Assembly: GCF_051201565.1 (NCBI RefSeq)
Contig: NZ_CP179200.1
Span: 1,762,441 to 1,794,440, forward strand
Source: Pseudothioglobus sp. nBUS_23
GTDB taxonomy: Bacteria > Pseudomonadota > Gammaproteobacteria > PS1 > Pseudothioglobaceae
Direction: 5' to 3'
DNA length: 32,000 nucleotides
Below are positions 3,315-23,129 of this stretch, one piece after another. Within the stretch, counting starts at the first letter, position 1. Each line of letters starts with the position of its first letter. A model generated the notes under the pieces. That model worked only from the letters and a program-made list of their open reading frames with translations, did not search any database and was not told the origin of the DNA. The translations under genes and the position numbers were made by a program.

Positions 3315-4841
3315 ATGGAAAAAACAAAACTACTTTTAATCTTAGATGGGTGGGGTTATTCGAGTGATACCTCTAATAATGCTATTGCCCTAGCAGATAC
3401 GCCTAATTGGGATCATTTTATAGAGAATTATCCAAACACCCTTATTGGCACCTCTGGAAACAGCGTAGGTCTTCCAGATGGACAAATGGGTAACTCTGAG
3501 GTTGGCCACCTGACTATTGGCTCGGGAAGAATTATTGAGCAGGATTTTACAAGAATTGAAAATTCAATAAAGTCTGGTGATTTTTTTTCCAATGAAGTGC
3601 TATGTAAAGCCCTTGCCTCAGCAAGTGAAAAAGGAAAGGCTGTGCATGTTCTCGGACTGCTATCCGATGGAGGTGTTCACTCACACCAAGATCATATCTT
3701 TGCGGCTCTTAAGCTTGCCAAAGAGAAAAAATGTGACAAGGTCTATATCCATATTTTTACTGATGGGCGCGATACGCCGCCTAATAGTGCCTCAACTTAT
3801 GTCAACGACCTAGAGAAACAAATTTCCGAAATAGGAGTCGGTAAAATTGTATCAATTGCTGGACGCTTTTATGCAATGGACAGGGATAATCGCTGGGAAA
3901 GGGTTTCAAAAGCCTATAAACTTATATCACAAGGAGTTGGCGAGCGACAAGCAAGCAATGCCCAAGAAGCTATTCAAAAGGCTTATGACCTAGGCGAAAA
4001 TGATGAATTTCTATCGCCAACATCAATAGGCAGCCCTGTTAGGTTAGAGGATGGCGACCTAATGATTTTTATGAATTATCGAGCTGATAGAGCAAGAGAA
4101 ATAACTCAAGCCCTTGCAATGTCCAGATTTGATGCGTTCAATCGAGAATATTTTGCTGAGTGCACTTTTGTCTGTCTTACAGAATATAAAAAAGACTTTG
4201 GTCTTGATTGTGCGTTCCCGCCGATATCTGTCAAAAACACTCTAGGGGATTGCGTGTCAGATCTTGGATTTAAGCAGCTTAGAATAGCTGAAACTGAAAA
4301 ATATGCGCATGTTACTTTTTTCTTCAATGGTGGTGTTGAAGAAAGTCTTCCTGGTGAAGATAGAAAGCTTATTCAGTCGCCCAAAGTAAAAACTTATGAT
4401 CTGCAACCGGAGATGAGTGCATTCGAACTCACAGAAGATCTTATTTCTGAGATTAATGCTCAAAAATATAGCCTTATTATATGCAACTTTGCAAACACCG
4501 ACATGGTTGGACATACTGGGAAACTCGAAGCGGCGATTAAGGCTGTAGAAGCTGTTGATAGCTGTCTTGGAAAAATCCATCGTGCAGCTAAAGAAACAAA
4601 AACAGAGGTTTTAATTACTGCTGACCATGGAAATGCAGAACAGATGACAGACTCTATAACTCAGAAAAGCCATACTGCTCATACAACTAATCCGGTTCCA
4701 TTAATTTATATTGGTGAAAAGAAAAGTTCGCTATTAGGTCCACATATTGGTACACTGGCAGACATAGCGCCAACTCTTTTGTCGCTCATGAACATTGAGC
4801 AGCCAAGCGAGATGTCAGGAAAAAGCCTTCTAACTAATTAG
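3315..4841 (+). CDS. gpmI: 2,3-bisphosphoglycerate-independent phosphoglycerate mutase
   Basis: 508 aa. [23 protein letters not shown] and TADHGNAE motifs are characteristic of iPGM. Confidence 0.95.
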
Positions 4842-5638: not shown

Positions 5639-6940
5639 ATGGGAAAGTCGTCTTTCTTGGGGCCTGAAACAATATCACTTCATTCGGGATACGAACCAGA
5701 CTCTTCATTTGGAAGCAGGGCTGTCCCTGTTTATCAAACCACCTCATATGTTTTCGAGACTGTTGATGATGCCGCTGCACTTTTCAATATAGAAAAGGGC
5801 GGACATATTTATAGCAGAATGACGAATCCTACGGTTGCCGTTTTAGAGCAGCGAATTGCTGCATTAGAAGGAGGTGTTGGGGCAATTTGTACAGCCTCGG
5901 GCATGAGTGCACTTTTTGTTACTTTTGTCAGCCTTTGTTCTGCTGGTGATCATATTGTCAGCGCCTCACAAATCTATGGATCAACTGCGACACTTCTTAG
6001 ACACACCCTCAAAAGATTTAATATTGACTGTACTTTTGTCTCCATTAATGATGAAAAAGCTCTTAAAGCGGCCATACAGGAAAACACAAAACTCGTCTTT
6101 TGTGAATCAATTGGCAACCCAGGACTGGAGGTATCAAACCTGCCCAAAATTTCAAACATTGCTCATCAAAACAACCTCCCTCTTGTTATTGACGCAACAT
6201 TTGCAACACCAGCGCTTTGTAAGCCATTTGAGCATGGAGCTGATGTTGTAGTGCATTCTGTTACAAAATGGATGGGAGGACATGGAGTTGCTGTAGGAGG
6301 TGTCATTGTTGATGGTGGTGCTTTTGACTGGGGTGCTGCTAACAAACATCCAGAGCTTACTACGCCTTATGAGCCATTCCATGGAATAAACTTCTGGGAA
6401 GAGTTTGGGCCCTCCGCACTTTCAATGAAAATTAGAGCAGAGTCTATGCGTGACTTTGGCCCGGCCATGAGCCCTCACAGCGCTTTTTTACTTCTTCAGG
6501 GCATTGAAACTCTTAGTCTTCGAATGAGCCAACACGTTAAAAATGCAATCAAACTCGCAAAATGGCTGCTGGAACAATCTGCAGTAATGTGGGTTAACCA
6601 TCCTGATCTGCCTGAAAACCCTACCTGCGAAATAGCAAAAGAGCTCTTTCCAAATGGCGCTGGATCAATGTTATGCTTTGGTGTAAAAGGAGGAAGAGAA
6701 GGAGGGGCAGCATTTATTAACTCTCTTAAGCTATCATCAAATTTAGCAAATGTAGGTGACTCAAGAACTCTCGTTCTTCACCCTGCAAGCACGACTCACT
6801 CTCGACTGGATGATGATGCAATGAAAGCTTCTGGAACAAGCCCAGATTTAATCAGAGTGTCAGTTGGAATCGAGTCTGTTAATGACATCATCAATGATTT
6901 TAAAGTTGGCCTTAAGGCAGTAGAAAAGGCAACTGCGTAA
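5639..6940 (+). CDS. metY: O-acetylhomoserine sulfhydrylase (aminocarboxypropyltransferase), PLP-dependent
   Basis: 433 aa. N-terminal [12 protein letters not shown]...[14 protein letters not shown], the PLP-lysine motif [11 protein letters not shown], and a C-terminal HPASTTHS motif typical of the MetY/Cys-Met PLP family. Confidence 0.9.
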
Positions 6941-7731
6941 TGAATATTGTTGTTGACGGAGTAGATATTTTTGTGGCTACGGGAGGCTGCGCTTTTGACC
7001 CAAAAAAACCGACAGTGGTTTTTGTCCATGGAAGTGGTCTCGATCATAGGTCTTGGGCGCTCCAGGCAAGATGGTTTGCATTTCATGGCTTCTCTGTTTT
7101 AGCGCCTGATTTGCCTGGACACAGCTTGTCAGAAGGAGAGCCTCTTAAGTCGATTGAAAGTATGGGCAAATGGCTAGTGAAAGCCATCAAACACTCGGGC
7201 GCGGAAAACGTCCACCTGGTTGGTCATTCACAAGGCTTTCTTGTAGCCCTTGAAGCGGCTATTCTTTTAGAAGACAAATTAAAATCTTTAACTGCTGTTG
7301 CGAGCGCCTCAGCAATCCCTGTGAATGAATCGCTCGTTGATACGGCTCAAAAAAATACAAAAGAAGCTGCCGACATGCTCTTGAGGTGGGGCTTTGGATC
7401 TCGATCTCATGCAGGCGGTAGTGCAGTACCTGGGATGCAACCAATAGGGATTGGGCGCCAAATTATGTCATCAAATCCTTTGGCTGAGGATCTCTTAGCT
7501 TGTAATAAATATAAGAACGGAATAAACTGTGCGAAAAATATTAAAGCGCCCTCAAACGTTATTGTGGCAACAGAAGACAAAAACACTCCATACAAATTTG
7601 GGTTAGAACTTGCGGAGGCTTTAGGGGCAGAAACTACAACTGTTTCTGGCTCGGGACATATGCTTCCAATTGAGGCTCCAAAGAGCACCTTGGATGCCAT
7701 TAAATCATTTATCTTAAAAATAAATCCATGA
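6940..7731 (+). CDS. Alpha/beta-fold hydrolase, substrate unknown
   Basis: 263 aa. HGSG oxyanion-hole motif, GHSQG nucleophile elbow and a C-terminal GSGHMLPIE catalytic His region. The start overlaps the metY stop (TAATG). Confidence 0.8.
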   Translation: MNIVVDGVDIFVATGGCAFDPKKPTVVFVHGSGLDHRSWALQARWFAFHGFSVLAPDLPGHSLSEGEPLKSIESMGKWLVKAIKHSGAENVHLVGHSQGFLVALEAAILLEDKLKSLTAVASASAIPVNESLVDTAQKNTKEAADMLLRWGFGSRSHAGGSAVPGMQPIGIGRQIMSSNPLAEDLLACNKYKNGINCAKNIKAPSNVIVATEDKNTPYKFGLELAEALGAETTTVSGSGHMLPIEAPKSTLDAIKSFILKINP

Positions 7732-10022
7732 ATAAAATTATAAAAGTTGGCGTCATTGGCGCCGGTACGATGGGTGCTGGTATTGCTGGCCAAGTTGCTA
7801 ACGCAGGAATAGAGGTTTGGCTACTAGACCTGCCTACTGAAGGTGAAAATGTAAACAGCTTGGCCCAAAAAGGATTAGAGAGACTCAGAGATCCTGATAT
7901 GCCTGGCATTATGAGCAAAGAGGCTGAAGAGCTTATACATCTCGGAAACACAAGAGATAACTTTAATGAGCTCAATGAATGTGACTGGATTGCTGAAGCT
8001 GTCGTGGAAAGACTGGATATTAAACAGGCGCTATACAAAAAACTTCATGAAACCTGTAAAGAATCTGCGATCATTACTTCGAATACTTCAACTATTCCAA
8101 TTAGTCTATTGACTGAGGGCATGCCTCAAGACTTTTGTGAGCGCTTTGCTATTACTCATTTCTTTAATCCGGTTCGCTTCATGAGACTCCTAGAGCTAGT
8201 CAGAGGTGAGCAAACCAGACAAGATGTGATGGACACGCTTGATGTTTTCTGCGAGAGTATGCTTGGTAAGGGTGTTGTGCCTTGTTCAGATACGCCTGGC
8301 TTTCTTGCAAATAGAGTGGGTGTTTTTGCAATTCAGTGCGCCCTTCACAAGGCATTTGAATACAACCTCTCTCCAACAGAGGCTGATGCTTTTTTTGGTA
8401 GGCCACTTGGCCTTCCCAAAACTGGAGTTTTTGGTCTTTATGACCTAATTGGTATTGATTTAATGGCTGATGTGGCAAAAAGCCTCGAAAACATCTTGCC
8501 AGAAAATGATGCCTTTCATAAGTATGCCGCGCCCATAGAATTTGTGTCCAACATGATCGCCAATGGTCAAACTGGAAACAAAAATGATCAGGGCTTTTAT
8601 AAGCAGGTTGGTGATGACAAAATGGTAATAGACCTGTCCAATGGAAGCTATGTTGAACATAAACGCCTAAAAACTTCTCTCTTAGAAGAAGCTGAAAAAA
8701 CTGGAGTGGCCGCAATCATTAGCGATCAAAGCAAATACGGCCTCTTTATCTGGGATGTACTTTCTGAAACTTTGTCCTATGCGGCCTCATTAGTCCCTGA
8801 AGTTACTGAAGATGTAACCCAAATTGATGACGCAATGAAGCTGGGCTATAACTGGGTGAAAGGGCCTTTCGAGTTAATTGATGAAATTGGCATCGATTAC
8901 TTTGTTAATAGGCTTAAAACTAGCGCCAGAGATGTGCCTGACTTCCTTGAAAATAGCACAAATAAAAAGTTTTATATTAACTCGAATTCAATCTTGAGCA
9001 CGCTCACTAGTTCTGGCGAACTAAAACCTATTGTCAGGCCAAAAGGCGTTCTTCGATTCTCAGAGGCGCGACAAACTTTGGCTCCAATCAACTCAAATGA
9101 GTCAGCTAGTTGGTTTGAATATGAGGATGCGGCTGTTGTAGAGTTCCACTCAAAAGCAAACGCTCTCGATAGTCAAAGCCTGGACATGATATCTGATGCG
9201 GTCACTGCCGCTGAAAACAAAGGCCTGAAAGGCGTCATTATTCACAATGACTTTCAGCATTTTTCTTGTGGTGTTAGCTTATGGAGCGTTAGAAACTGTT
9301 TTGAAAAAAATGACTTTGATGGCCTTGATGACTTTCTTGCTTATTTTCAAAATACTATGCTTCAAATGAGAAACTCTAGTCTCCCTGTTGTTGCTGCGCC
9401 TGTTGGAATGTCTATCGGCGGTGGTTTTGAGGTTGTATTACATGCAGACCATGTTGTCAGTCACGCTAACTCTGTGATGGGCCTAGTTGAGTCTTTTGTT
9501 GGCGTTGTGCCTGCAGGTGGTGGCTGCAAAGAAATGCTTTATCGATGGACAGAAAAGCTAAACGATACTCAGAAAGGAGCATGGAAATCATTTATGAATA
9601 TCGGTCTTGGAAGAAAGGCTAACTCGCCCCAAGAAGCTGACGCCTTATCCATGAGAAGGCCTGGTGACACCTTTCAGATGAATCGTGATCGAATATTAGA
9701 TGCTGCACTTTCAACAATAGGTGCAACAAAAAAAGCTGCCAAACGAGAGCCGCTTGCCCTATCAGGAGCCGAACATTATCAAGAAATGTTAGAGTGGCTT
9801 GAAGTAAATCATAAAAAAGGCATGCTTACCCCGCATGATGTAACTGTTGGAACCGAGATTGGTAGAGTAATGTCGGGTGGTGAGTGCCCAGCTGGAACAG
9901 TTTTTTCTGAGCAAGATATTCTCAACGCTGAGCGCTCTTCATTTATCAGGCTTGCCCAAACCCAAGAAACTCAAGCAAGAATTGTTGCCATGTTAGATAA
10001 TGGCATTACTTTAAGAAATTAA
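7728..10022 (+). CDS. Bifunctional 3-hydroxyacyl-CoA dehydrogenase / enoyl-CoA hydratase, FadN-type domain order (dehydrogenase N-terminal, crotonase C-terminal)
   Basis: 764 aa. N-terminal Rossmann VGVIGAGTMGAGIA and HFFNPVRFMRLLELV (3-HCDH). C-terminal crotonase-like segment (AAPVGMSIGGGFEVVLHADHVV). ATGA overlap with the upstream hydrolase gene. Confidence 0.85.
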   Translation: MNKIIKVGVIGAGTMGAGIAGQVANAGIEVWLLDLPTEGENVNSLAQKGLERLRDPDMPGIMSKEAEELIHLGNTRDNFNELNECDWIAEAVVERLDIKQALYKKLHETCKESAIITSNTSTIPISLLTEGMPQDFCERFAITHFFNPVRFMRLLELVRGEQTRQDVMDTLDVFCESMLGKGVVPCSDTPGFLANRVGVFAIQCALHKAFEYNLSPTEADAFFGRPLGLPKTGVFGLYDLIGIDLMADVAKSLENILPENDAFHKYAAPIEFVSNMIANGQTGNKNDQGFYKQVGDDKMVIDLSNGSYVEHKRLKTSLLEEAEKTGVAAIISDQSKYGLFIWDVLSETLSYAASLVPEVTEDVTQIDDAMKLGYNWVKGPFELIDEIGIDYFVNRLKTSARDVPDFLENSTNKKFYINSNSILSTLTSSGELKPIVRPKGVLRFSEARQTLAPINSNESASWFEYEDAAVVEFHSKANALDSQSLDMISDAVTAAENKGLKGVIIHNDFQHFSCGVSLWSVRNCFEKNDFDGLDDFLAYFQNTMLQMRNSSLPVVAAPVGMSIGGGFEVVLHADHVVSHANSVMGLVESFVGVVPAGGGCKEMLYRWTEKLNDTQKGAWKSFMNIGLGRKANSPQEADALSMRRPGDTFQMNRDRILDAALSTIGATKKAAKREPLALSGAEHYQEMLEWLEVNHKKGMLTPHDVTVGTEIGRVMSGGECPAGTVFSEQDILNAERSSFIRLAQTQETQARIVAMLDNGITLRN

Positions 10023-10033
10023 CAGTTACGCCT

Positions 10034-11647
10034 ATGAACAAAAATCCTGCTAATTTTGTCCCCCTAACTCCCATCTCTTTTTTACATAGAACCGCTGATA
10101 TTTATGGCGACTATAAGTCTGTCATATATGAGAACAGGTCATACACCTGGAGTCAGACCAGAGAAAGGTGTGTTAGAGTTGCTTCGAGCCTTAAGGGCCT
10201 CGGAATTGAAATAGGAGACACTATTTCAGTATTAGCATTCAACACTCCAGAAATGTTTGAGTCTCATTTTTCAATTCCAATGGCGGGCGCTATTTTAAAT
10301 ACGATAAATATTAGACTTGATGCGCCAACAATCGCCTACATTTTTGATGACAGCAATGCAAAAATTCTCTTCGTTGATAGAGAGCTTTATGCCGTTGCTT
10401 CTGAGGCGCTTTCAATTGCTTCAGTGAGTCCAAAAATCGTTTTAATTAATGACTCCTTTGCAAGCTCAGCTCCGGATGTTTCTGCTGACATATTAGATTA
10501 CGAGTCACTTGTTGACAACGGCGACCCACTTTATAACTGGACCATGCCAAGCGATGAATGGAGCCCATTGTCACTAAGCTATACATCTGGAACAACGGGA
10601 AAGCCAAAAGGTGTGGTCTATCATCATCGCGGCTCTTATTTAATGAGCATGGGCACTGTGGTAGGCTGGAACCTTCCCAACCACCCTATCTACCTATACT
10701 CAGTCCCTCTATTTCACTGCAACGGCTGGGGGCACGCCTGGACAATGGCTGCACTTGCTGGAACTGTGGTTTGCCTCAGGTCTTTCGACCCAGAAAAAGT
10801 ATTTGCCTTACTTGATGAATACCGTGTGACTCATTTTGGTGGCGCTCCAATTATGCTTAATATGCTTGCCAATGCCCCTACAGATATAAAAAAATCATTC
10901 GACAGGGAAATCAAAGTCATGACCGCTGGCGCCCCTCCTCCTGCGAAAGTCTTAGAAAGCATGATGTCGCTTGGATTTAATGTAATGCATGTGTATGGTC
11001 TTACAGAGACCTATGGTCACATTCTGCAAGCAGCCCCTCAAGCATCGTGGCTTAATGAAAGTCCGGCAGAGCTTGCAAAGCTAAGCTCAAGACAGGGGGT
11101 TAGATTTCCCATGACTGAGGATGTTAGCGTGATAGATCAAGATACTGGTGAGCGCGTGCCTCATGATGGAGAAACCATTGGTGAAATTGTGATACGCTGC
11201 AACACCTGCATGATGGGCTATTGGAATAATCCCGAGGCCACGGAAGAAGCTTTTGCTGATGACTGGTTTCACAGTGGTGACCTAGCAGTCATTTATGATG
11301 ATGGCTATATACAGATTAAAGACAGATCAAAGGACATTATCATTTCAGGTGGAGAGAATATCTCATCGGTTGAAGTCGAAAATATTCTTTACCAACACCC
11401 CTCAGTGGGTGAAGCTGCAGTTGTTGCAATGGCAGACGAAACTTGGGGCGAAGTACCCTGTGCTTTTGTTGAACTCAAGCCCAATCAAGAAGCCTCTGAG
11501 GCTGAACTTATAGCTTTTTGTAAAAACAGTATGGCTAAATTTAAACGACCTAAAAAAATTGTTTTTGGCCCGCTTCCAAAAACTGCAACCGGGAAGATTC
11601 AAAAACACGAGCTTAGGGCCGCTGTAAAGAGCCTGGGAGGAGAATAA
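10034..11647 (+). CDS. AMP-forming acyl-CoA synthetase (short/medium-chain type; DmdB-like architecture)
   Basis: 537 aa. AMP-binding motif YTSGTTGKPKGVVYHHRG, YGLTET, GDL...DGY.QIKDRSKDIIISGGENISS, and a terminal KTATGKIQK lysine. Confidence 0.9.
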   Translation: MNKNPANFVPLTPISFLHRTADIYGDYKSVIYENRSYTWSQTRERCVRVASSLKGLGIEIGDTISVLAFNTPEMFESHFSIPMAGAILNTINIRLDAPTIAYIFDDSNAKILFVDRELYAVASEALSIASVSPKIVLINDSFASSAPDVSADILDYESLVDNGDPLYNWTMPSDEWSPLSLSYTSGTTGKPKGVVYHHRGSYLMSMGTVVGWNLPNHPIYLYSVPLFHCNGWGHAWTMAALAGTVVCLRSFDPEKVFALLDEYRVTHFGGAPIMLNMLANAPTDIKKSFDREIKVMTAGAPPPAKVLESMMSLGFNVMHVYGLTETYGHILQAAPQASWLNESPAELAKLSSRQGVRFPMTEDVSVIDQDTGERVPHDGETIGEIVIRCNTCMMGYWNNPEATEEAFADDWFHSGDLAVIYDDGYIQIKDRSKDIIISGGENISSVEVENILYQHPSVGEAAVVAMADETWGEVPCAFVELKPNQEASEAELIAFCKNSMAKFKRPKKIVFGPLPKTATGKIQKHELRAAVKSLGGE

Positions 11648-13401
11648 TGTCAAACTATACTGCGCCTGTCGAAGACATGGGTTTTGTATTAAAAGAAGTT
11701 GTTGAGATTGAAAAACTTTGTAATGAAACTGGTTTAGATGGCTCCACCGTTGAAATTCTTGATACAGTCCTGGAGGCTGCGGGAAAGCTTGCAAAAGAAG
11801 AGATAGAGCCAATCAATAAACCTGGTGATTCTGAAGGCTTACAAATTGATGGCTCAGGAAAAGTTACTACTGCAGCTGGCTTTAGAGAGGCCTATCAGCA
11901 CTTTGTTGAGGGGGGCTGGGGCTCACTGCAATTCTCGCCAACCTATGGGGGACAGGGCGTCCCATTTGTGGTCGCTGCAAGTGTTCAAGAGATGTGGCAT
12001 TCTGCAAATATGTCTTGGGGGCTATGCCCGCTACTTACTCAAGGAGCAGTCGAAGCAATCACATTGAATGCAAGCGAAGAACTTAAACAGCGCTACCTTC
12101 CAAAGCTAATTTCAGGAGAGTGGAGTGGAACAATGAATCTCACTGAAGGTGATGCTGGTACTGATGTGGGCTCACTTAAAACTAAGGCTGTCCCTAATGG
12201 AGACCATTACTTAATTCGTGGACAAAAAATTTATATCACCTGGGGTGAGCATGATATGTCCGAGAATATTATTCATTTGGTATTAGCGCGTTTGCCAGGT
12301 GCCCCAGCAGGAATTAAAGGTATTTCATTATTTTTAGTGCCAAAGCTTTTAGTGAATGAGGATGGCACACTTGGCAATACTAATGACTTAAAAGCGTTGT
12401 CCATCGAACATAAAATTGGTATTCATGCCTGCCCTACATGTGTCATGAGTTATGGTGAAGAAAGTGGTGCAATTGGCTATTTAATTGGCGAGGAAAACAA
12501 AGGCATCCAGTGCATGTTCACGATGATGAATAATGCAAGACTTACTGTTGGGCTCCAGGGCGTATCGGTATCTGAGCGCGCCTATCAGCAGGCACTAAAT
12601 TTTTGCAATGAACGAGTTCAGGGCGTTGCTCCTGGCTTTAAGGAGCCCGGGCCCATTATTAGGCATCCAGATGTTCAAAGAATGCTTGCTAACATGAAGT
12701 CAATCACACAGGCCTCTCGAGCACTGACTTATGCTGCTTGTGCAGAGGTTGACTACTCCTTAAGCAGCCTCCCGCTCGAAAACCTTGAAATGCACGAAAG
12801 AAGGCTTGGGTTTTTAACTCCAATTGTCAAAGGCTGGTGTACAGAAACTGCGCAAGAGGTTGCCTCAGTTAGTCTTCAGTGCCATGGTGGAATGGGCTAT
12901 GTCGAGGAGACAGGCATTGCACAAATCCTTAGAGATGCAAGAATCTTACCGATCTATGAGGGAACAAATGGCATTCAAGCAATGGACCTTGTGGGCAGAA
13001 AAATCATTACTGATAGTGGGCTTGGCGCCAATGAACTGATTGAAGATATGCGTGAATTTGCAATGAATCCAACGCTGACAGAAATGGTTTCAGGCTCTCA
13101 ATTAAAGCGCTTTATCAGTGCAATTGAAGATTTTGAAAAAACAGTTTCGATCATTCTGAATCGCTCTGATAACAAGGAGCTTGTTGGGAAACTGGCTTTT
13201 GATACGCTAATGATGGCAGGCACCATAATAGCATCTTGGCAAATGCTATTAAGTCTTGAAAAAGCATCAAATGCGCTTAATAATAAATCGCTGTCTTCTG
13301 AGTTTTTTAATGAAAAGTCTGAGACTGTATCGCACTTTATGGACTTTATATTGCCTCGATATTTCTCAAACTTTGCAACAATAACTGCTATCACAAGCTA
13401 A
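11647..13401 (+). CDS. Long-form acyl-CoA dehydrogenase with extra N- and C-terminal helical domains (DmdC-like architecture)
   Basis: 584 aa. N-terminal Y.AP..DM.FVL motif, MNLTEGDAGTDVG, and IYEGTNGIQAMDLVGRK near the FAD/catalytic region. The start overlaps the ligase stop (TAATG). Confidence 0.9.
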   Translation: MSNYTAPVEDMGFVLKEVVEIEKLCNETGLDGSTVEILDTVLEAAGKLAKEEIEPINKPGDSEGLQIDGSGKVTTAAGFREAYQHFVEGGWGSLQFSPTYGGQGVPFVVAASVQEMWHSANMSWGLCPLLTQGAVEAITLNASEELKQRYLPKLISGEWSGTMNLTEGDAGTDVGSLKTKAVPNGDHYLIRGQKIYITWGEHDMSENIIHLVLARLPGAPAGIKGISLFLVPKLLVNEDGTLGNTNDLKALSIEHKIGIHACPTCVMSYGEESGAIGYLIGEENKGIQCMFTMMNNARLTVGLQGVSVSERAYQQALNFCNERVQGVAPGFKEPGPIIRHPDVQRMLANMKSITQASRALTYAACAEVDYSLSSLPLENLEMHERRLGFLTPIVKGWCTETAQEVASVSLQCHGGMGYVEETGIAQILRDARILPIYEGTNGIQAMDLVGRKIITDSGLGANELIEDMREFAMNPTLTEMVSGSQLKRFISAIEDFEKTVSIILNRSDNKELVGKLAFDTLMMAGTIIASWQMLLSLEKASNALNNKSLSSEFFNEKSETVSHFMDFILPRYFSNFATITAITS

Positions 13402-13477: not shown

Positions 13478-14128
13478 ATGTTTAAACTCAGCTTTCTATC
13501 TTTATTATTAGTTTCATCTTTTGCAAGCGCTGAAGAAGCAAGGCGCGCCAATGCGCATGTCCATGGACTAAATAATTTGTCAATGGTAATCAGTCAAAAT
13601 CAAGTTGCTGTTTCATACGAAATGCCAATAGTACAGCTACTTGATGACCATGATGAGCATGACGAGCACGATGAGCACGATGAGCATGACGAGCACGATG
13701 AGCATGACGAGCACGATGAGCATGACGAGCACGATGAGCATGACGAGCACGATGAGCATGACGAGCACGATGAGCACGATGAGCACGATGAGCACGAAGG
13801 ACATGATGACCATGATGAGCTAACTGTTTCAGATGAAACTTTAGCTACATTTAACAATTACTCGCAATTATTTGAATTCCCCAAAGGCGCTGGATGTAAT
13901 CTAACCTCTTTTGAATCTGGTCTTCACAGCGTCTCAACAGAAGGAGATCACAAAGACGTTGAATTATCTTATGAGTTTGCTTGCAGCAATCCAAGTCAGT
14001 TAAAGAGCCTTACTATCAATGCGTTTGATCGATTTAGCGAACTTGAAACTTTAAACTTTGAGGCGGTAATAAACAATAAAGCTCTAACAAAGAGCCTAAA
14101 ATCAGGTGCTAATAAAGTAATATTTTAA
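13478..14128 (+). CDS. Secreted His/Asp/Glu-rich metal-binding protein, DUF2796 / ZrgA / PA4063-like
   Basis: 216 aa. Signal peptide MFKLSFLSLLLVSSFASA, then an AHVHG motif and beta-rich core as I recall for DUF2796. Central (HDE)16-HEGHDDHDE tract. First gene of an ABC + DUF3299 + zur operon. Confidence 0.75.
   Translation: MFKLSFLSLLLVSSFASAEEARRANAHVHGLNNLSMVISQNQVAVSYEMPIVQLLDDHDEHDEHDEHDEHDEHDEHDEHDEHDEHDEHDEHDEHDEHDEHDEHDEHEGHDDHDELTVSDETLATFNNYSQLFEFPKGAGCNLTSFESGLHSVSTEGDHKDVELSYEFACSNPSQLKSLTINAFDRFSELETLNFEAVINNKALTKSLKSGANKVIF
13649..13792 (+). repeat. In-frame tandem repeat: 16 consecutive CAY-GAY-GAG (His-Asp-Glu) units, including five perfect copies of the 18-bp unit CATGACGAGCACGATGAG at 13685-13774
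   Basis: Counted codon by codon from the sequence. The acidic/His tract extends from 13643 to 13819. Confidence 0.98.
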
Positions 14129-17558: not shown

Positions 17559-18440
17559 TTATTGATGTTTTTTTCCAAAAAATGGGACTAGTATTGGCGT
17601 TCTTTTTTTGTATTCAATATAGTCCTTGTCTTCGCCCCATTTTTTTTCAGCCTTGTCTTCTAAAAAAGGAAGTCCACTTATTCTTGTCAAAAGGAGAAAC
17701 ACAAACACAGGAGATGCTAGAGTCACAAACTGCCAGCCAGATAAAAATGGTAGCGAGATAATTGCAATACCAGCCCATAGAATAATTTCTCCAAAATAGT
17801 TTGGATGGCGAGATACAGACCATAGCCCCTGGGTGATAAACCTGCCTTCATTTTTAGGCTGCTCACTGAAGTGCTTTTTTTGTTTGTCAGCAATCACCTC
17901 AAAACCAAAGCCTAATAACCACAACAAAGCCCCCATGATAAAAAATATACCAATTGGCTCAAGTGGGTTCAGCGCGATTAAAGTAATGGCGTTTACAGTC
18001 GTTAAGAAGACCCAAAGCGCTGACAATGTCCAAGTCATTAAAAACTTTGGAATCGATTTTTTTATATCTCTAAACCTGCTGTCTTCACCCGCTTTCACTA
18101 TTCTTTTATAAAGAAATATTCCCAGTCTTAAGGTCCAAACAGATACAAAGGAGGCAACGAATACTGAACGAATTGATGCTTCTGCTCCCGAACTCAAGAG
18201 CGCAAACATCGCAGTTAAAACAACAAGGAGCGTAGCAACCATCCCTGTAAAGTCAAAATATTTTTCTGAGCTTGTAATTAACGAAGGAACCGCAATCATC
18301 CAATGCGTCACAAAACTGACGATGGCACACAAAAGAATTATTGGAATTCCAGAAAAAAATATCCCATCAACTGAAGCTGCTATAGCAACAAGGTAAGCCG
18401 TTAAAATGCATAAAGCGATAGCGCCAAAGTCTCTAATCAT
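17559..18440 (-). CDS. DUF1295 membrane protein (steroid 5-alpha-reductase / ICMT-like fold)
   Basis: 293 aa, polytopic. The C-terminal GLWSVSRHPNYFGEIILWAG motif is characteristic of DUF1295. Confidence 0.8.
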   Translation of the reverse strand: MIRDFGAIALCILTAYLVAIAASVDGIFFSGIPIILLCAIVSFVTHWMIAVPSLITSSEKYFDFTGMVATLLVVLTAMFALLSSGAEASIRSVFVASFVSVWTLRLGIFLYKRIVKAGEDSRFRDIKKSIPKFLMTWTLSALWVFLTTVNAITLIALNPLEPIGIFFIMGALLWLLGFGFEVIADKQKKHFSEQPKNEGRFITQGLWSVSRHPNYFGEIILWAGIAIISLPFLSGWQFVTLASPVFVFLLLTRISGLPFLEDKAEKKWGEDKDYIEYKKRTPILVPFFGKKHQ

Positions 18441-19474
18441 TGCGGTTTCTCAAAAAGGTAGTGCGAGACGCCCCATTCGGAGCCATGGGCAAACCCAAAA
18501 AGAACCTCGCAAGACATGAAAAAAATACGCCATCTTTGGAACCATGACTTGGCGTCATTTTTTCCATAAGTTTTCTTAAAGAGCTCTAAAACCTCTGCTT
18601 TATTTTTGTCCATTTTTTGAAGCCAAGCAAGAGAGGTTTTTTCGTAGTGCGTTCCACTCACTCTCCAGTCTTTTTGTATTTTCATTTGACCTGGAAAGCT
18701 CATCAATAGCCTATGGGAAGGCATTTGGCCACCGCTAAAAAACTCCCTTGCCATCCAGTCTGCATCGTCATTATCTTCAAACGGATAGGCAACTCTTTGG
18801 TGGGAAAATATATGTACAAAAAGCTTTCCTTCCTTTTTTAACCACAAATTAACTCTGCCAAGTAGTTTTTCATAATTGCGCATATGCTCAAACATCTCGA
18901 TTGAAACAACTCGATCAAACAATCCCTCAGCCTCAAAATCATTCATGTCTGCAGTGATAACCCTGACATTGTCTAGCTTAAGCTGTCTGCATCTCTCTTC
19001 TATAAACAGCCTCTGGTCATTAGAGTTGCTAACTGCGGTAATTTTACTTTTTGGAAAATGCTCCGCCATATAGAGCGTTAAAGACCCCCATCCGCACCCT
19101 AACTCTAATATATCTTGGCCATCAACCAATTCTGCTCTCTGCGTTGTCAGCTCTAGCATGGCAGATTCAGACTGATCTAGCGAAGACACCCCTTTTGGCC
19201 AATGGCCGGAGCTATATTTAAGCCTCTTTCCGAGCACGAGCTCAAAGAGTCTTGGCGGAACCTCATAATGCTGTTCGTTTGCTTTTTCTGGAACAAGTGC
19301 AATTGGGCTTTTCTTTAAAACTTCAACCCATGCGGCATGCTCCTTTTCCATATCATCATCACTAAAGCTTGTTGCCTTCACCAAGCGTTGACTGCATAGG
19401 CGCTTTATTCCGAGCCTGATTAATGAGTCCGGCAACCACCCTTTTTCTGCAAGTTTAATTAATAAAGTAATCAT
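18437..19474 (-). CDS. SAM-dependent methyltransferase of the cyclopropane-fatty-acyl-phospholipid synthase (CMAS) family, short form
   Basis: 345 aa. SAM motif ILELGCGWGSL, SIEMFEHM, and a C-terminal W..YF..CE..F region typical of CFA synthases. ATGA-type 4-nt overlap with the downstream gene. Confidence 0.85.
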   Translation of the reverse strand: MITLLIKLAEKGWLPDSLIRLGIKRLCSQRLVKATSFSDDDMEKEHAAWVEVLKKSPIALVPEKANEQHYEVPPRLFELVLGKRLKYSSGHWPKGVSSLDQSESAMLELTTQRAELVDGQDILELGCGWGSLTLYMAEHFPKSKITAVSNSNDQRLFIEERCRQLKLDNVRVITADMNDFEAEGLFDRVVSIEMFEHMRNYEKLLGRVNLWLKKEGKLFVHIFSHQRVAYPFEDNDDADWMAREFFSGGQMPSHRLLMSFPGQMKIQKDWRVSGTHYEKTSLAWLQKMDKNKAEVLELFKKTYGKNDAKSWFQRWRIFFMSCEVLFGFAHGSEWGVSHYLFEKPQ

Positions 19475-19477
19475 AAG

Positions 19478-20767
19478 TTAATATGTAATTTGAGTGTTTC
19501 TTGAATCCGGCTTAGCAAATACAAGCTGAAAGTCTCCAATTAGGTTTTCAAGAAAACCTGCTTCACAGTAGACCAGGTAAAAATTCCAAATCCTCGTAAA
19601 AGGCTCTGAAAAACCAAGCTCTTTAACCTGAGGCAAAACAGCTAGAAAGTCTTCTCGCCAAATCTCTAGGGTTCTTGCATAATGATGAGTAATGTCTTCA
19701 GAGTGTATCATCGCCATATCAGTCTTATCTTTGATGGCTTGCAATATTTGTGGCATTGCAACAAGACATGAGCCTGGAAAAATATACTTCCTTATAAAGT
19801 CAACTGATCTCTTGTAAGAATCAAAGTCGGGGTCATTGTAGGTTATCCCTTGAAGCAGCATGAGTCCATTTATTTTCATTAATGAGGATGCTTTTTCGAA
19901 GAACCCAGGAACGTACTCTGCGCCGACAGCCTCTATCATTTCAATAGAAACAACCTTGTCAAATGAACCCTCAAGCTCTCGATAGTCTTTGCTTAAAAGT
20001 GTTATTTTGTTATCAAGGCCTTCTTTAGATATAAGCTCTGATGCATATTGAAACTGTTTATCAGAGATGGTTGTTGTTGTAACCTTGCAGCCATAGTTTT
20101 TAGCGGCATGAATTGCAAAGCTTCCCCACCCTGTGCCAATTTCAAGAACATGGTCTGTGTTTTTAAGCTTGAGTTTTCTACAGATTCTATCTAATTTTTC
20201 AATAGAAGCCTCTTTCATGCTTGAGCTCTTATTAAGAAAAACTCCACTTGAATAGGTCATTGTTGGATCTAGCCAAAGCTTGTAAAAATCATTACTCAAA
20301 TCATAGTGGGCCAAGATATTGTTTTTACTTCCAGCTAAAGTATTTTGTCTTTTTTTGTGAATTAGTTTTGTAATTGGATTGGCCAGTCTTGCTAAGCCAG
20401 ACTCAAGGCCAAGCAAAGTTTTTTTATTTTTAATAATAAGCTGTATCAACTTGACAAGGTTGTTGGAGCCCCAGTATCCAGCAGTGAAGGCCTCTGCAGC
20501 GCCATTTGTCCCCCCACTTCCTAAAAAAACATAAAACTCTTGCGAAAAAACCTCCAGCTCTGCCTTAAACTCAGAATCTGGATTACCAAAAACGTGTTTG
20601 TGGTCTCCATCAATAATGGTTAGCTCACCACTATTAATGCTTTTTAGCTTTCTAAATAAAATGCTTTTAAAAAAAGACGTTGTGCGTGTGCTTTTTTGCA
20701 TTTCTTGAATGCTGTTCGCAAGAGCGTCAACGGATAGCTTGTCTTTGAACTGTTTTTCTTTTGTCAT
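19478..20767 (-). CDS. Cyclopropane-fatty-acyl-phospholipid synthase family protein, long form with N-terminal extension
   Basis: 429 aa. HYDLSNDFY, VLEIGTGWGSFA, SIEMIEAVG and LVYCEAGF motifs. Confidence 0.85.
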   Translation of the reverse strand: MTKEKQFKDKLSVDALANSIQEMQKSTRTTSFFKSILFRKLKSINSGELTIIDGDHKHVFGNPDSEFKAELEVFSQEFYVFLGSGGTNGAAEAFTAGYWGSNNLVKLIQLIIKNKKTLLGLESGLARLANPITKLIHKKRQNTLAGSKNNILAHYDLSNDFYKLWLDPTMTYSSGVFLNKSSSMKEASIEKLDRICRKLKLKNTDHVLEIGTGWGSFAIHAAKNYGCKVTTTTISDKQFQYASELISKEGLDNKITLLSKDYRELEGSFDKVVSIEMIEAVGAEYVPGFFEKASSLMKINGLMLLQGITYNDPDFDSYKRSVDFIRKYIFPGSCLVAMPQILQAIKDKTDMAMIHSEDITHHYARTLEIWREDFLAVLPQVKELGFSEPFTRIWNFYLVYCEAGFLENLIGDFQLVFAKPDSRNTQITY

Positions 20768-21528
20768 AATTTATCTGGGTGTGTAAAAAATGGAGCCCTT
20801 CTGATTAAAAGCATCAGGGCTTGCCAATGTATTCTGTAGACAACCATCATAGTTGCAAACGGAAACCTAAGAATAGCCTTAATAAGGCCTTTCTTACTGA
20901 AGGCTTGCCTTTTTAAGCTCAGCGCAACATTGAACACCTTTTCTCCATCTTTATAGTTTTTCATTATTACATTTAACGCCTCTTCAGGATTAGAAAAAAA
21001 CCACTCATATTCGTGGTCCATTCCCCAAAAAGGGCTGACATGGAATTGTTTTTTTGGAGTGGCAGTAAAGCTTAGTTTGCTGCTCGACTCTAGCCGCTCA
21101 TTTATAACGTATGCGTGCCTTTCTTTCCATGGAGTATTAGTAACTTCGGCCATTATAGCCTCAACTTTTTTATCATTTTCATCAAAACAGTAATAAAAAC
21201 TAACTGGATTAAAGCAGTGTCCAAAGTATCTTAAGTGTGTAAGAAGCCTGATTGGACCTTTGAATTCTATACCTGTTTTTTCATGCATAGTTTTTCTAAC
21301 AGCCTCTTCAAGGCCTATTGATGGGTCCCCATGATAGTCCTGTCTCCTGTAGGAAACGATTGCAGGCTTGTTGATGTTCCAAAGCATAGATGGCTTCATG
21401 ACAGAGGCTAAATTAGAGATATCAATATAAGCCATAAAAATAGGGTACTTAAAAAAACGGCTGAATGGAGTATGCCTATGGTGACTAATAGTTCCCCAGT
21501 ATAAGTGATGCATTTTAGAAAGGCTCAT
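20764..21528 (-). CDS. DUF1365 family protein
   Basis: 254 aa. N-terminal LYWG.ISH.RH.P....F.Y.IFMAYIDI pattern typical of DUF1365. 4-nt overlaps on both sides. Confidence 0.75.
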   Translation of the reverse strand: MSLSKMHHLYWGTISHHRHTPFSRFFKYPIFMAYIDISNLASVMKPSMLWNINKPAIVSYRRQDYHGDPSIGLEEAVRKTMHEKTGIEFKGPIRLLTHLRYFGHCFNPVSFYYCFDENDKKVEAIMAEVTNTPWKERHAYVINERLESSSKLSFTATPKKQFHVSPFWGMDHEYEWFFSNPEEALNVIMKNYKDGEKVFNVALSLKRQAFSKKGLIKAILRFPFATMMVVYRIHWQALMLLIRRAPFFTHPDKL

Positions 21529-22772
21529 AGCGAGACCCCAAAAGCCTTGCAGACATCGAGCGCACTATTGACTCCGTCTTCATGAAAACCATTGCCCCAG
21601 TAGGCGCCACAATAATATGTATTATTTTGGCCACTGATTTGGTTTTTTTTCTTCTGAGCATGGACTCCATTAACCGTAAAGAGGGGGTGCGAATAATCAA
21701 TTTTTTTGATTATTTTTGAAGGGTTGATTTCGTTCAAACTGTTAAGGGTCACCAAAAAGTCTGGTTTCGCGTCCAATGACTGAAGAATATTCATATTATA
21801 AGTCAGTGTGACGGGTCTATTTGGGTCGCCACTCAACAAATAATTCCAGCTTGACCAGGTTTTTTTAATTTTTGGCATTAGTGTCACATCAGTGTGAACT
21901 ATAGCTGTATTTTTTTGATAGGGCAAGGCCTCAAGAACTGACTTTTCATCATTGCTTGGGTCCTTAAGCAATGCTAGCGCTTGGTCGCTATGGGTAGCAA
22001 AGACAACTTTATCAAAAAATAATGGATCAGCTTCTTTTTCACAATAAATCTTGACCTCAGAGGGGTTGCGCTCTACTTTTATTACTGGCTTAGATAGAAG
22101 AATTTTTTCCTGAAAACCCTCAATTATTTTTTGAACATAGGACTTAGAGCCGCCCTTGATAACAAACCATTGTGGGCGATTAAATATCTGGAGAAGACCA
22201 TGGTTTTTAAAAAAACGAATGAAAAAAGCTGCGGGCATTTCCGTTGTTTTGTTAGCTGCAGTTGACCAAATAGCCGCACCCATTGGAATAATGTAATTCT
22301 CCACAAAGGGCTTGCTAAACTTATGTTTTTCTAAGAAACTAAGAATAGTTGTTGTCTCGTCAGCCTTGGAAAGCTCTTTTGCAGCTAGGCGATTAAAGCG
22401 AAGAACGTCCTTCAGCATAATCAAAAAGGCTGGCTTGAACAAATTAAGTCTCTGGGCAAAAACCGTATTTAGAGACCCCCCAGAATACTCAAGGTTTTGT
22501 GATGGCGCCTTAACACTGAAACCCATTGTAGTCTTTTGGACCTTTACCTTTAGTTTTTTTAGAAGCTTAATGAAATTAGGGTAGGTTTTTTCGTTGTAAA
22601 CAATAAAGCCTGAATCGACCTTCCACATTTTGTTGTTCTGGCTTATTTCGTGTGTGTGGGTATGTCCACCAATATAGTCATTTGCTTCAAAAACAGTAAT
22701 GTCGTGGTCTTTGTGTAAAAGGTATGCAGTGGTTAAGCCCGATATTCCACTGCCAATAATCGCAATCTTCAT
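21525..22772 (-). CDS. FAD/NAD(P)-binding amine-oxidase/desaturase-like oxidoreductase
   Basis: N-terminal dinucleotide fold MKIAIIGSGISGLTTAYLL...V.FEA....GGH. I prefer the ATG at 22772; the ORF track's TTG at 22781 adds only 3 residues. Confidence 0.85.
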   Translation of the reverse strand: MKIAIIGSGISGLTTAYLLHKDHDITVFEANDYIGGHTHTHEISQNNKMWKVDSGFIVYNEKTYPNFIKLLKKLKVKVQKTTMGFSVKAPSQNLEYSGGSLNTVFAQRLNLFKPAFLIMLKDVLRFNRLAAKELSKADETTTILSFLEKHKFSKPFVENYIIPMGAAIWSTAANKTTEMPAAFFIRFFKNHGLLQIFNRPQWFVIKGGSKSYVQKIIEGFQEKILLSKPVIKVERNPSEVKIYCEKEADPLFFDKVVFATHSDQALALLKDPSNDEKSVLEALPYQKNTAIVHTDVTLMPKIKKTWSSWNYLLSGDPNRPVTLTYNMNILQSLDAKPDFLVTLNSLNEINPSKIIKKIDYSHPLFTVNGVHAQKKKNQISGQNNTYYCGAYWGNGFHEDGVNSALDVCKAFGVSL

Positions 22773-23129
22773 AAACAACAATTAAATATATAATGTTGAG
22801 CCTCCCCTTTAATAGCTCTAAGCACTATCATAACCAAAAACTGCGCAGGAAAAACGAAAAAAGGCCCAATTATAACGAGTCTTTTTTTGGGATGCGTCGA
22901 ATACTCTAAAAGCCTTACACAGAAAAACAGGCAGCCAAATAGTCTTTGCGTATTTAGAAAAAATATGGGATAATTGTCGCCTTTCAGCATTTTAGCTGGA
23001 AAAGGAACGGCATTGTATTAACAACGTCAGTAATTTAATGTATCACACAGCGCCCCAATATTAGTCAGGGTGCCCTTTAAAAGGGGTTGGCTAATAGGCA
23101 ATGTGGAAGTCTTAACCCAGGAGAAATGT

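Follow-up and report, generated by a model that had tools for sequence, protein, structure and literature searches.

Why should a gene of methionine biosynthesis stand at the head of a set of acyl-CoA genes that holds no thiolase? This question is raised by five consecutive genes, encoding MetY, an alpha/beta hydrolase (ABH), a FadN-type fusion protein, an AMP-forming CoA ligase and a long acyl-CoA dehydrogenase, in the 32,000-nucleotide stretch of Pseudothioglobus sp. nBUS_23 analysed here (hereafter the window; NZ_CP179200.1, positions 1,762,441 to 1,794,440). This work indicated that the operon very probably leads from methylmercaptopropionate (MMPA) through methanethiol to methionine, in line with the sulfur-salvage role, within the demethylation of dimethylsulfoniopropionate (DMSP), that the original prediction had proposed: in 39 of 43 loci outside the Thioglobaceae, metY has a GcvT-family gene of the DmdA type immediately upstream. 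On balance, we favour, by a modest degree, an operon that couples the lower half of DMSP demethylation, in a DmdD-independent form ending in malonyl-CoA, to the synthesis of methionine. The hydrolase and the dehydrogenase half of FadN, to which the original prediction had given no role, are the most informative parts. The five genes are the following:

5639-6940, plus strand: MetY, 433 aa, intact open reading frame
6940-7731, plus strand: alpha/beta hydrolase (ABH), 263 aa, intact open reading frame
7728-10022, plus strand: FadN-type fusion, 764 aa, intact open reading frame
10034-11647, plus strand: AMP-forming CoA ligase, 537 aa, intact open reading frame
11647-13401, plus strand: long acyl-CoA dehydrogenase, 584 aa, intact open reading frame

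The reading frames and their junctions lie as first described, with TAATG at 6938-6942 between metY and the hydrolase gene, ATGA at 7728-7731 between the latter and fadN, an 11-nt gap at 10023-10033, and TAATG at 11645-11649. Family searches agreed with the five assignments made earlier, and the block is indeed devoid of a thiolase, the two thiolases of the genome being about 260 kb and about 580 kb distant. Because gene overlap is common in this streamlined genome, and is also seen at 4841, 14792 and 16602 in the window, overlaps alone are weak evidence of a unit; what goes beyond chance is the conservation of gene order. Among 82 loci anchored on the hydrolase, metY stands directly before the hydrolase gene in 80, so that the metY linkage, whose conservation in related genomes had been put forward as a check, extends far beyond kin. 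The fadN gene follows directly in 74 of the 75 loci with room for it, a ligase lies nearby in 55 of 61, and none of the 82 loci has a thiolase. A promoter and terminator scan of the locus returned sites no more often than chance, and an Rfam search upstream of metY found no riboswitch. Contigs from RNA runs covered the locus evenly and extended into the upstream genes, with DNA as a possible source, and were uninformative on co-transcription and expression level.

The link to dmdA was confirmed with a curated DmdA model, passed at 432-499 bits (cut-off 410) by 13 of the 14 upstream or head-to-head genes tested, including all of the first nine; the single failure was L139, at 379 bits. In Alphaproteobacteria, the block lies beside dmdA in other layouts, head-to-head in L140 and L142 and in line in Sneathiella (L117). 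The window genome (one contig, C1, of 1.79 Mb, 37.8% GC, 99.9% complete) has its own dmdA elsewhere, as the original prediction had suggested looking for: the gene at C1:1116291 encodes a protein that passes the DmdA model at 422 bits, and in four genomes of the same genus (G051, G081, G085, G099) dmdA is still head-to-head with metY. In these four, according to match coordinates only, the gene for malonyl-CoA decarboxylase (MCD) and dmdA face metY and the hydrolase gene, with fadN next on the same contig in three of them; in G085, for example, MCD and dmdA on the minus strand precede metY, ABH and fadN on the plus strand. The adjacent dmdA was probably lost from the lineage of the window by rearrangement. 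Within the family, the hydrolase gene and dmdA were detected in the same two genera and neither of them in the other 17 genera sampled, although these carriers are kin and not independent cases. In Alphaproteobacteria, the hydrolase gene was found in 16 of 22 genomes with dmdA and in 62 of 279 others, a statistic confounded by kinship on which we do not rely. No conclusion drawn here depends on the unpublished genome G464. Cultured carriers include Aliamphritea hakodatensis (dmdA-metY-ABH-fadN-ligase-MCD), Sneathiella marina, Ca. Njordibacter Uisw_002 and Ca. Pseudothioglobus Uisw_041, and no SAR11 dmdA locus turned up among the sampled Alphaproteobacteria.

The block was also seen on contigs of metagenome-assembled genomes (MAGs) labelled Vibrio, Polaribacter, Urechidicola, Acidimicrobiia and Flavobacterium (L069, L070, L091, L098, L110); L098 and L110 branch among Gammaproteobacteria in trees, which suggests mis-binning or transfer, and metY is split in L110. 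In sediment Gammaproteobacteria (L060, L063, L067, L073, L079, their relatives, and the Olavius Gamma 3 symbiont L081), a D-glutamate-cyclase-family gene and further conserved genes come after the ligase, and a HalD-like gene often precedes dmdA.

From these genes, their residues, their clades and their links to dmdA and MCD, we infer the substrates and intermediates of the following scheme. The ligase would activate MMPA to MMPA-CoA, which the long dehydrogenase would convert to methylthioacryloyl-CoA (MTA-CoA), and the crotonase half of FadN would hydrate the latter to a hemithioacetal. The dehydrogenase half would oxidise carbon 3 of this compound with NAD+, most simply to S-methyl-thiomalonyl-CoA, which the hydrolase would split into methanethiol and malonyl-CoA. 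MetY, bound to the hydrolase, would combine methanethiol with O-acylhomoserine to form methionine, while MCD, encoded elsewhere in the window genome and adjacent in relatives, would turn malonyl-CoA into acetyl-CoA and CO2. Since the product of carbon-3 oxidation would be a thioester, hydrolysis rather than thiolysis would be needed. Such a scheme would give every gene a role and would account for the missing thiolase, the conserved dehydrogenase half, the link to MCD and the docking on MetY. The exit through malonyl-CoA appears slightly better than an even prospect, and the S-methyl thioester intermediate somewhat short of one.

Malonyl-CoA is pointed to as the product because MCD joins the unit in two layouts. 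In 6 of 37 other loci, belonging to three lineages (Aliamphritea/Oceanospirillaceae, Arenicella and a Pseudomonadales MAG), it comes immediately after the ligase, with gaps of -4 to 220 nt; in the second arrangement, that of the four genomes of the same genus, it comes after dmdA in the head-to-head layout. The window genome has its MCD gene at C1:582009. Two genes from it, in L137 (C1:576133-583352), lie genes that by sequence appearance are RubisCO-type cbbL, cbbS, cbbQ and cbbO.

The ligase passes PRK08162 (804 bits, cut-off 677), within which it forms a subclade of its own with a support of 100 in the SH-like approximate likelihood-ratio test (SH-aLRT; this and the other trees are quick, midpoint-rooted IQ-TREE runs). 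It is distant from the solved DmdB 6IHK (247 bits) and scores 310 bits with PRK07008, under the cut-off of 822. Compared with the residues that bind MMPA and ATP in DmdB (H231, W235, G302, G303, W326, P333, K523), it keeps H228, W232, G299 and K521, which are general to the superfamily, and differs at A298 (G302 in DmdB), Y321 (W326) and G328 (P333). It is linked to dmdA through its place in the dmdA-led block; moreover, related FHCNGWGH-type ligases directly follow dmdA in L246 and L250, and another adjoins an SBP56/MtoX-family gene in L245, all without the other operon genes. We propose it as the MMPA-CoA ligase, in the role of DmdB. Ligases of the same type lie beside a DUF1326 gene in L245, L247 and L248, L245 being a possible unit from MMPA to methanethiol oxidation.

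The dehydrogenase is the sole member of the DmdC/FadE1-2 family in the genome. It shares 8 of 12 studied residues with DmdC 6IJC (M161, T170, K223, K281, F287, Y434, E435, R448), the catalytic E435 corresponding to its E438, and shows two conservative replacements (F195Y, S197T) and two changes (H280N, R284Q); these kept residues do not separate DmdC from FadE enzymes. Among solved structures, 8PNG matches it better (474 bits) than 6IJC (424 bits), which 8PNS equals. In the tree, it groups with the enzyme encoded directly upstream of dmdA in L110, apart from the thiolase-linked ones, and its link with the block is confined to Thioglobaceae (17/17) and L110. As judged from its sequence, it is a proposed MMPA-CoA dehydrogenase.

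FadN combines the Pfam domains 3HCDH and ECH, a fusion of 3-hydroxyacyl-CoA dehydrogenase and crotonase in the FadN order, with the catalytic residues of both halves intact (S121, H144, E156, N195, E568, E588) and the crotonase glutamates E568 and E588 present in all aligned rows shown. Its crotonase is the C-terminal half of a 764-aa protein and not a stand-alone enzyme of about 260 aa of the DmdD/AcuH form, and matches DmdD 4IZB only at E 8e-6; it may work like DmdD but is no DmdD. A single branch with an SH-aLRT of 100 splits thiolase-free from thiolase-linked FadN proteins. The swaps M477A, G540F, C567F and W597G are specific to the clade, and G540F and C567F, placed at the crotonase acyl pocket by alignment, would shorten that pocket. 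Profile scoring did not separate dedicated from generic copies, for which trees and neighbours were required. Generic loci mostly read thiolase, fadN, dehydrogenase, and operon-type loci hydrolase, fadN: the hydrolase occupies the position of the thiolase. FadN of the thiolase-free clade is proposed to hydrate MTA-CoA and to perform the oxidising step. The latter is tied to the metY-hydrolase pair, since a stand-alone dehydrogenase lacking the crotonase half adjoins the pair in eight distant loci.

A whole clade of 3-hydroxyacyl-CoA dehydrogenases of about 440 aa corresponds to FadN minus its crotonase half and is often head-to-head with the pair (L127, L129, L132, L134, L174, L184, L185, L190, L201-L210); 13 of 14 alphaproteobacterial carriers of this enzyme also have the hydrolase.

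The hydrolase and MetY appear as a fixed pair, widespread well beyond the five-gene operon: searches detected the hydrolase in 78 of 301 Alphaproteobacteria and in 19 of 300 Gammaproteobacteria, and metY adjoins it in 72 of 78 fetched loci. The catalytic triad of the hydrolase is kept in distant relatives (S97 in 79/79, D213 in 78/79 with one E, H240 in 79/79). Its fold is of the esterase/lactonase type, its best solved relatives are about 21-23% identical, and searches of solved structures, folds and the Atlas returned generic esterases only, with no close solved relative. Its closest named relatives belong to Ca. Pseudothioglobus/Thioglobus genomes; a search for fused forms found none, which is weak evidence. 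MetY passes TIGR01326 (583 bits, cut-off 495) and falls just under the cut-off of PRK08134 (621 against 636 bits), which close relatives pass; the lysine that holds pyridoxal phosphate (K210) and Y58, R60, Y113 and R406 are invariant in 49 relatives, 44 of which also keep R271 (Arg270 of Thermotoga maritima MetY). It is assigned by sequence to the O-acylhomoserine sulfhydrylases of the PRK08134 clade and is proposed to capture methanethiol, a sulfur donor already reported for Rru_A0774/A0784 of Rhodospirillum rubrum (PMC4958253).

The two proteins are indeed predicted to bind. Modelled with a single MetY chain, the complex scored 0.87, against 0.00 for the best of three controls, with runs agreeing in at least 95% of contacts and a predicted local distance difference test (pLDDT) of at least 93 for the partner; of 80 solved pairs, 58 came up to the score mark, as did 2 of 110 mismatched ones, rates that hold only roughly for the alignments used here. 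Recall of a similar complex is unlikely, because no close solved relative of the hydrolase was found. On the hydrolase side, the interface is formed by the 157-175 loop with the conserved G159, P164 and G165, poorly defined in the model of the hydrolase alone; on the MetY side, it covers residues 50-64 and 262-266, near the residues lining the acyl pocket of T. maritima MetY. We propose the hydrolase as an S-methyl thioesterase and MetY partner.

Several observations weigh against this reading. Its weakest point is that, in DmdD, hydrated MTA-CoA loses methanethiol spontaneously (PMC3660561), so that the hemithioacetal may not last until oxidation. Searches for MCD drew a blank in 5 of the 10 carrier genomes tested, among them a single-contig one, and in 13 of the 41 genomes from the genus. 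Direct capture accounts for only 33-50% of the methionine of Ruegeria (PMC7157515), where metY falls on DMSP (PMC9769926). MetY keeps Arg271, which in T. maritima disfavours O-succinylhomoserine (PMC8191291), yet the sole recognisable homoserine acyltransferase of the genome is the succinyl-type MetA. The pair is far commoner than DmdA in Alphaproteobacteria (78 of 301 genomes, with DmdA in only 22) and thus has uses beyond DMSP. Finally, the same genome holds a second candidate demethylation module on the minus strand at C1:40107-44239 (L111), headed by a dmdA-like gene (362 bits, below the cut-off of 410) and followed by osmC, a PRK08139 crotonase and a generic PRK08162 ligase; its gene order, and not that of the window, matches the dmdA-x-acuH-dmdB cluster of SAR92 (PMC10746254). 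The genome may hold two demethylation modules with one dehydrogenase in common. A search of the genome for crotonases found a CaiD-like protein, a PRK08139 protein and the two FadN fusions, and nothing else. Parts of this second module recur in L274 and L276.

These points invite other explanations, among which a different end to the same pathway appears rather unlikely. FadN would only hydrate MTA-CoA, methanethiol would leave alone, and the dehydrogenase half would reduce malonate-semialdehyde-CoA to 3-hydroxypropionyl-CoA or oxidise its hydrate; the hydrolase would supply the CoA-thioesterase activity that is built into DmdD, or act as a repair enzyme that frees methanethiol for MetY from S-methyl thioesters of acyl-CoAs. 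Enzymes of the 3-hydroxyacyl-CoA dehydrogenase family normally reduce a 3-oxoacyl-CoA when they run in reverse, and an AcuI-like reductase gene lies beside dmdA in L139 and L246. The spontaneous release documented for DmdD (PMC3660561) is in line with such an end, and the repair version would account for the metY-hydrolase pair without FadN or dmdA in most Alphaproteobacteria. By contrast, neither the reductive nor the thioesterase version explains why MCD should be part of the unit in two layouts, and the thioesterase version leaves unexplained the fully conserved dehydrogenase half, the stand-alone dehydrogenases and the predicted binding of the hydrolase to MetY.

That the hydrolase might be an unrecognised homoserine O-acyltransferase feeding MetY, with the acyl-CoA genes releasing methanethiol independently of it, seems highly improbable. 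MetX is indeed an alpha/beta-fold enzyme, a search of the genome with the MetX model returned no MetX-like gene near the cut-off, leaving only the succinyl-type MetA beside a MetY that keeps Arg271, and the predicted interface lies near the wall of the acyl pocket. However, that search did not report the hydrolase gene; the protein has 263 aa and an esterase/lactonase-type fold, whereas MetX has about 350-380 aa, and no MetX appears among its top structural matches or its 22 NCBIfam matches. A full-length MetX-family gene was moreover found in 3 of 5 carrier genomes tested (385-476 bits), and R. rubrum MetY works about equally fast with O-succinyl- and O-acetylhomoserine (PMC4958253), so that an acetyl donor may not be needed. 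An ordinary oxidation of short-chain fatty acids, propionate or acrylate (for instance from propionyl-CoA through malonyl-CoA to acetyl-CoA), placed after metY by chance, is improbable too. Verified DmdB and DmdC enzymes are broad in range, with a preference for some fatty acids (PMC5395565), the dehydrogenase is matched best among solved structures by 8PNG and not by DmdC, and a C3 route would also end in malonyl-CoA without a thiolase; whichever reading holds, C3-C5 acids are likely side substrates. Chance would nevertheless leave unexplained the dmdA gene of the 39 loci, the fixed metY-hydrolase pair in mid-operon, and the occurrence elsewhere of the ligase subclade next to dmdA and next to an MtoX-family gene. 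The simpler alternative of the original prediction, a fatty-acid operon with its thiolase elsewhere, is also weakened, as the genome has a separate and complete fadE-fadN-thiolase operon (C1:1508261-1514371), whose FadN is only 27% identical to that of the window.

The chemistry proposed for the MMPA operon has parallels in glutathione-dependent formaldehyde oxidation by FrmA/FrmB and in the glyoxalase system, where a hemithioacetal is converted to a thioester whose hydrolysis frees the thiol. This is an analogy of chemical logic with no claim of membership: the dehydrogenase of FrmA/FrmB belongs to an unrelated family, and the thiol would here be methanethiol, the wanted product. With the thiolase-fadN-acyl-CoA dehydrogenase operons for beta-oxidation in Proteobacteria, the window shares a homologous FadN (about 40% identical), a long dehydrogenase and the first three reaction types, but it has a hydrolase in the position of the thiolase, a FadN on a separate branch and bulkier residues at positions assigned to the acyl pocket. 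With the DMSP demethylation pathway DmdA-DmdB-DmdC-DmdD/AcuH of Ruegeria pomeroyi (PMC5395565, PMC6850173, PMC3660561), it has in common an AMP-forming ligase, a long flavin dehydrogenase with a catalytic glutamate, a two-glutamate crotonase domain, the tie to dmdA and, as proposed here, methanethiol as product. It differs in having no stand-alone DmdD/AcuH, a fusion of the crotonase with an NAD-dependent dehydrogenase, MetY and a serine hydrolase as built-in parts, and a link to MCD that points to malonyl-CoA and acetyl-CoA instead of acetaldehyde. The dmdA-acuH-dmdB cluster of SAR92 (PMC10746254) likewise presents a hydratase and a ligase linked to dmdA in marine Gammaproteobacteria, but uses a small stand-alone crotonase, unlike the fusion of the window.

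The pathway and the capture of methanethiol by MetY were already established (PMC5069961), and the cluster itself has been drawn, for the Ant4D3 and GM3 bins, and connected with the assimilation of MMPA (Kim et al., 2019, Microbiome, Suppl. Fig. S8b; PMC6383258). The passages found there name the same genes (dmdA, O-acetylhomoserine aminocarboxypropyltransferase, alpha/beta hydrolase, 3-hydroxyacyl-CoA dehydrogenase, acyl-CoA synthetase), label the FadN-like gene dmdC, assign no role to the hydrolase or MetY, and do not mention MCD, dedicated clades or a MetY-hydrolase complex. Unlike the cluster as drawn there, the window contains a true DmdC-family gene and no longer has dmdA next to the block. 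Our search of the literature outside subscription papers found no malonyl-CoA or S-methyl-thioester route for MTA-CoA and no MetY-hydrolase complex. New here are the dedicated FadN and ligase clades, the hydrolase in the position of the thiolase, MCD in two arrangements, and the widespread metY-hydrolase pair, predicted to bind.

Other genes of the window also deserve mention. A ZrgA-like zinc uptake protein is encoded at 13478-14128, with a long His/Asp/Glu tandem repeat (about 13640-13800) at which public contigs have loose ends, suggesting length variation. On the minus strand, 17559-22781 comprises, by sequence appearance, genes for an amine oxidase, DUF1365, two cyclopropane-fatty-acid-synthase-like methyltransferases and a membrane protein.

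Most marine carriers of dmdA lack DmdD (PMC5395565), and its replacement is only partly answered by the promiscuous AcuH; the unit described here offers concrete candidates, with a different end product. We tentatively envisage, as an idea that may well not hold, an oxidative DmdD-independent branch in which the dedicated FadN would trap methanethiol as the S-methyl thioester of malonyl-CoA and the MetY-docked hydrolase would free it at the point of capture, so that both the volatile sulfur and the CoA thioester would be kept, the MetY-hydrolase complex serving for the handling of methanethiol in general, in roughly one in four of the alphaproteobacterial genomes sampled. This work also provides a testable function for a hydrolase family now annotated merely as 'alpha/beta hydrolase'. 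If the proposed pathway is true, it could explain how many marine bacteria manage without DmdD, and acetyl-CoA would be obtained without re-activating acetate, which, from stoichiometry, would save two ATP equivalents per DMSP compared with the acetaldehyde route. In this abundant ocean bacterium, methanethiol from an algal sulfur compound would then be retained and not lost, a point relevant to how much of the DMSP sulfur remains in the food web.

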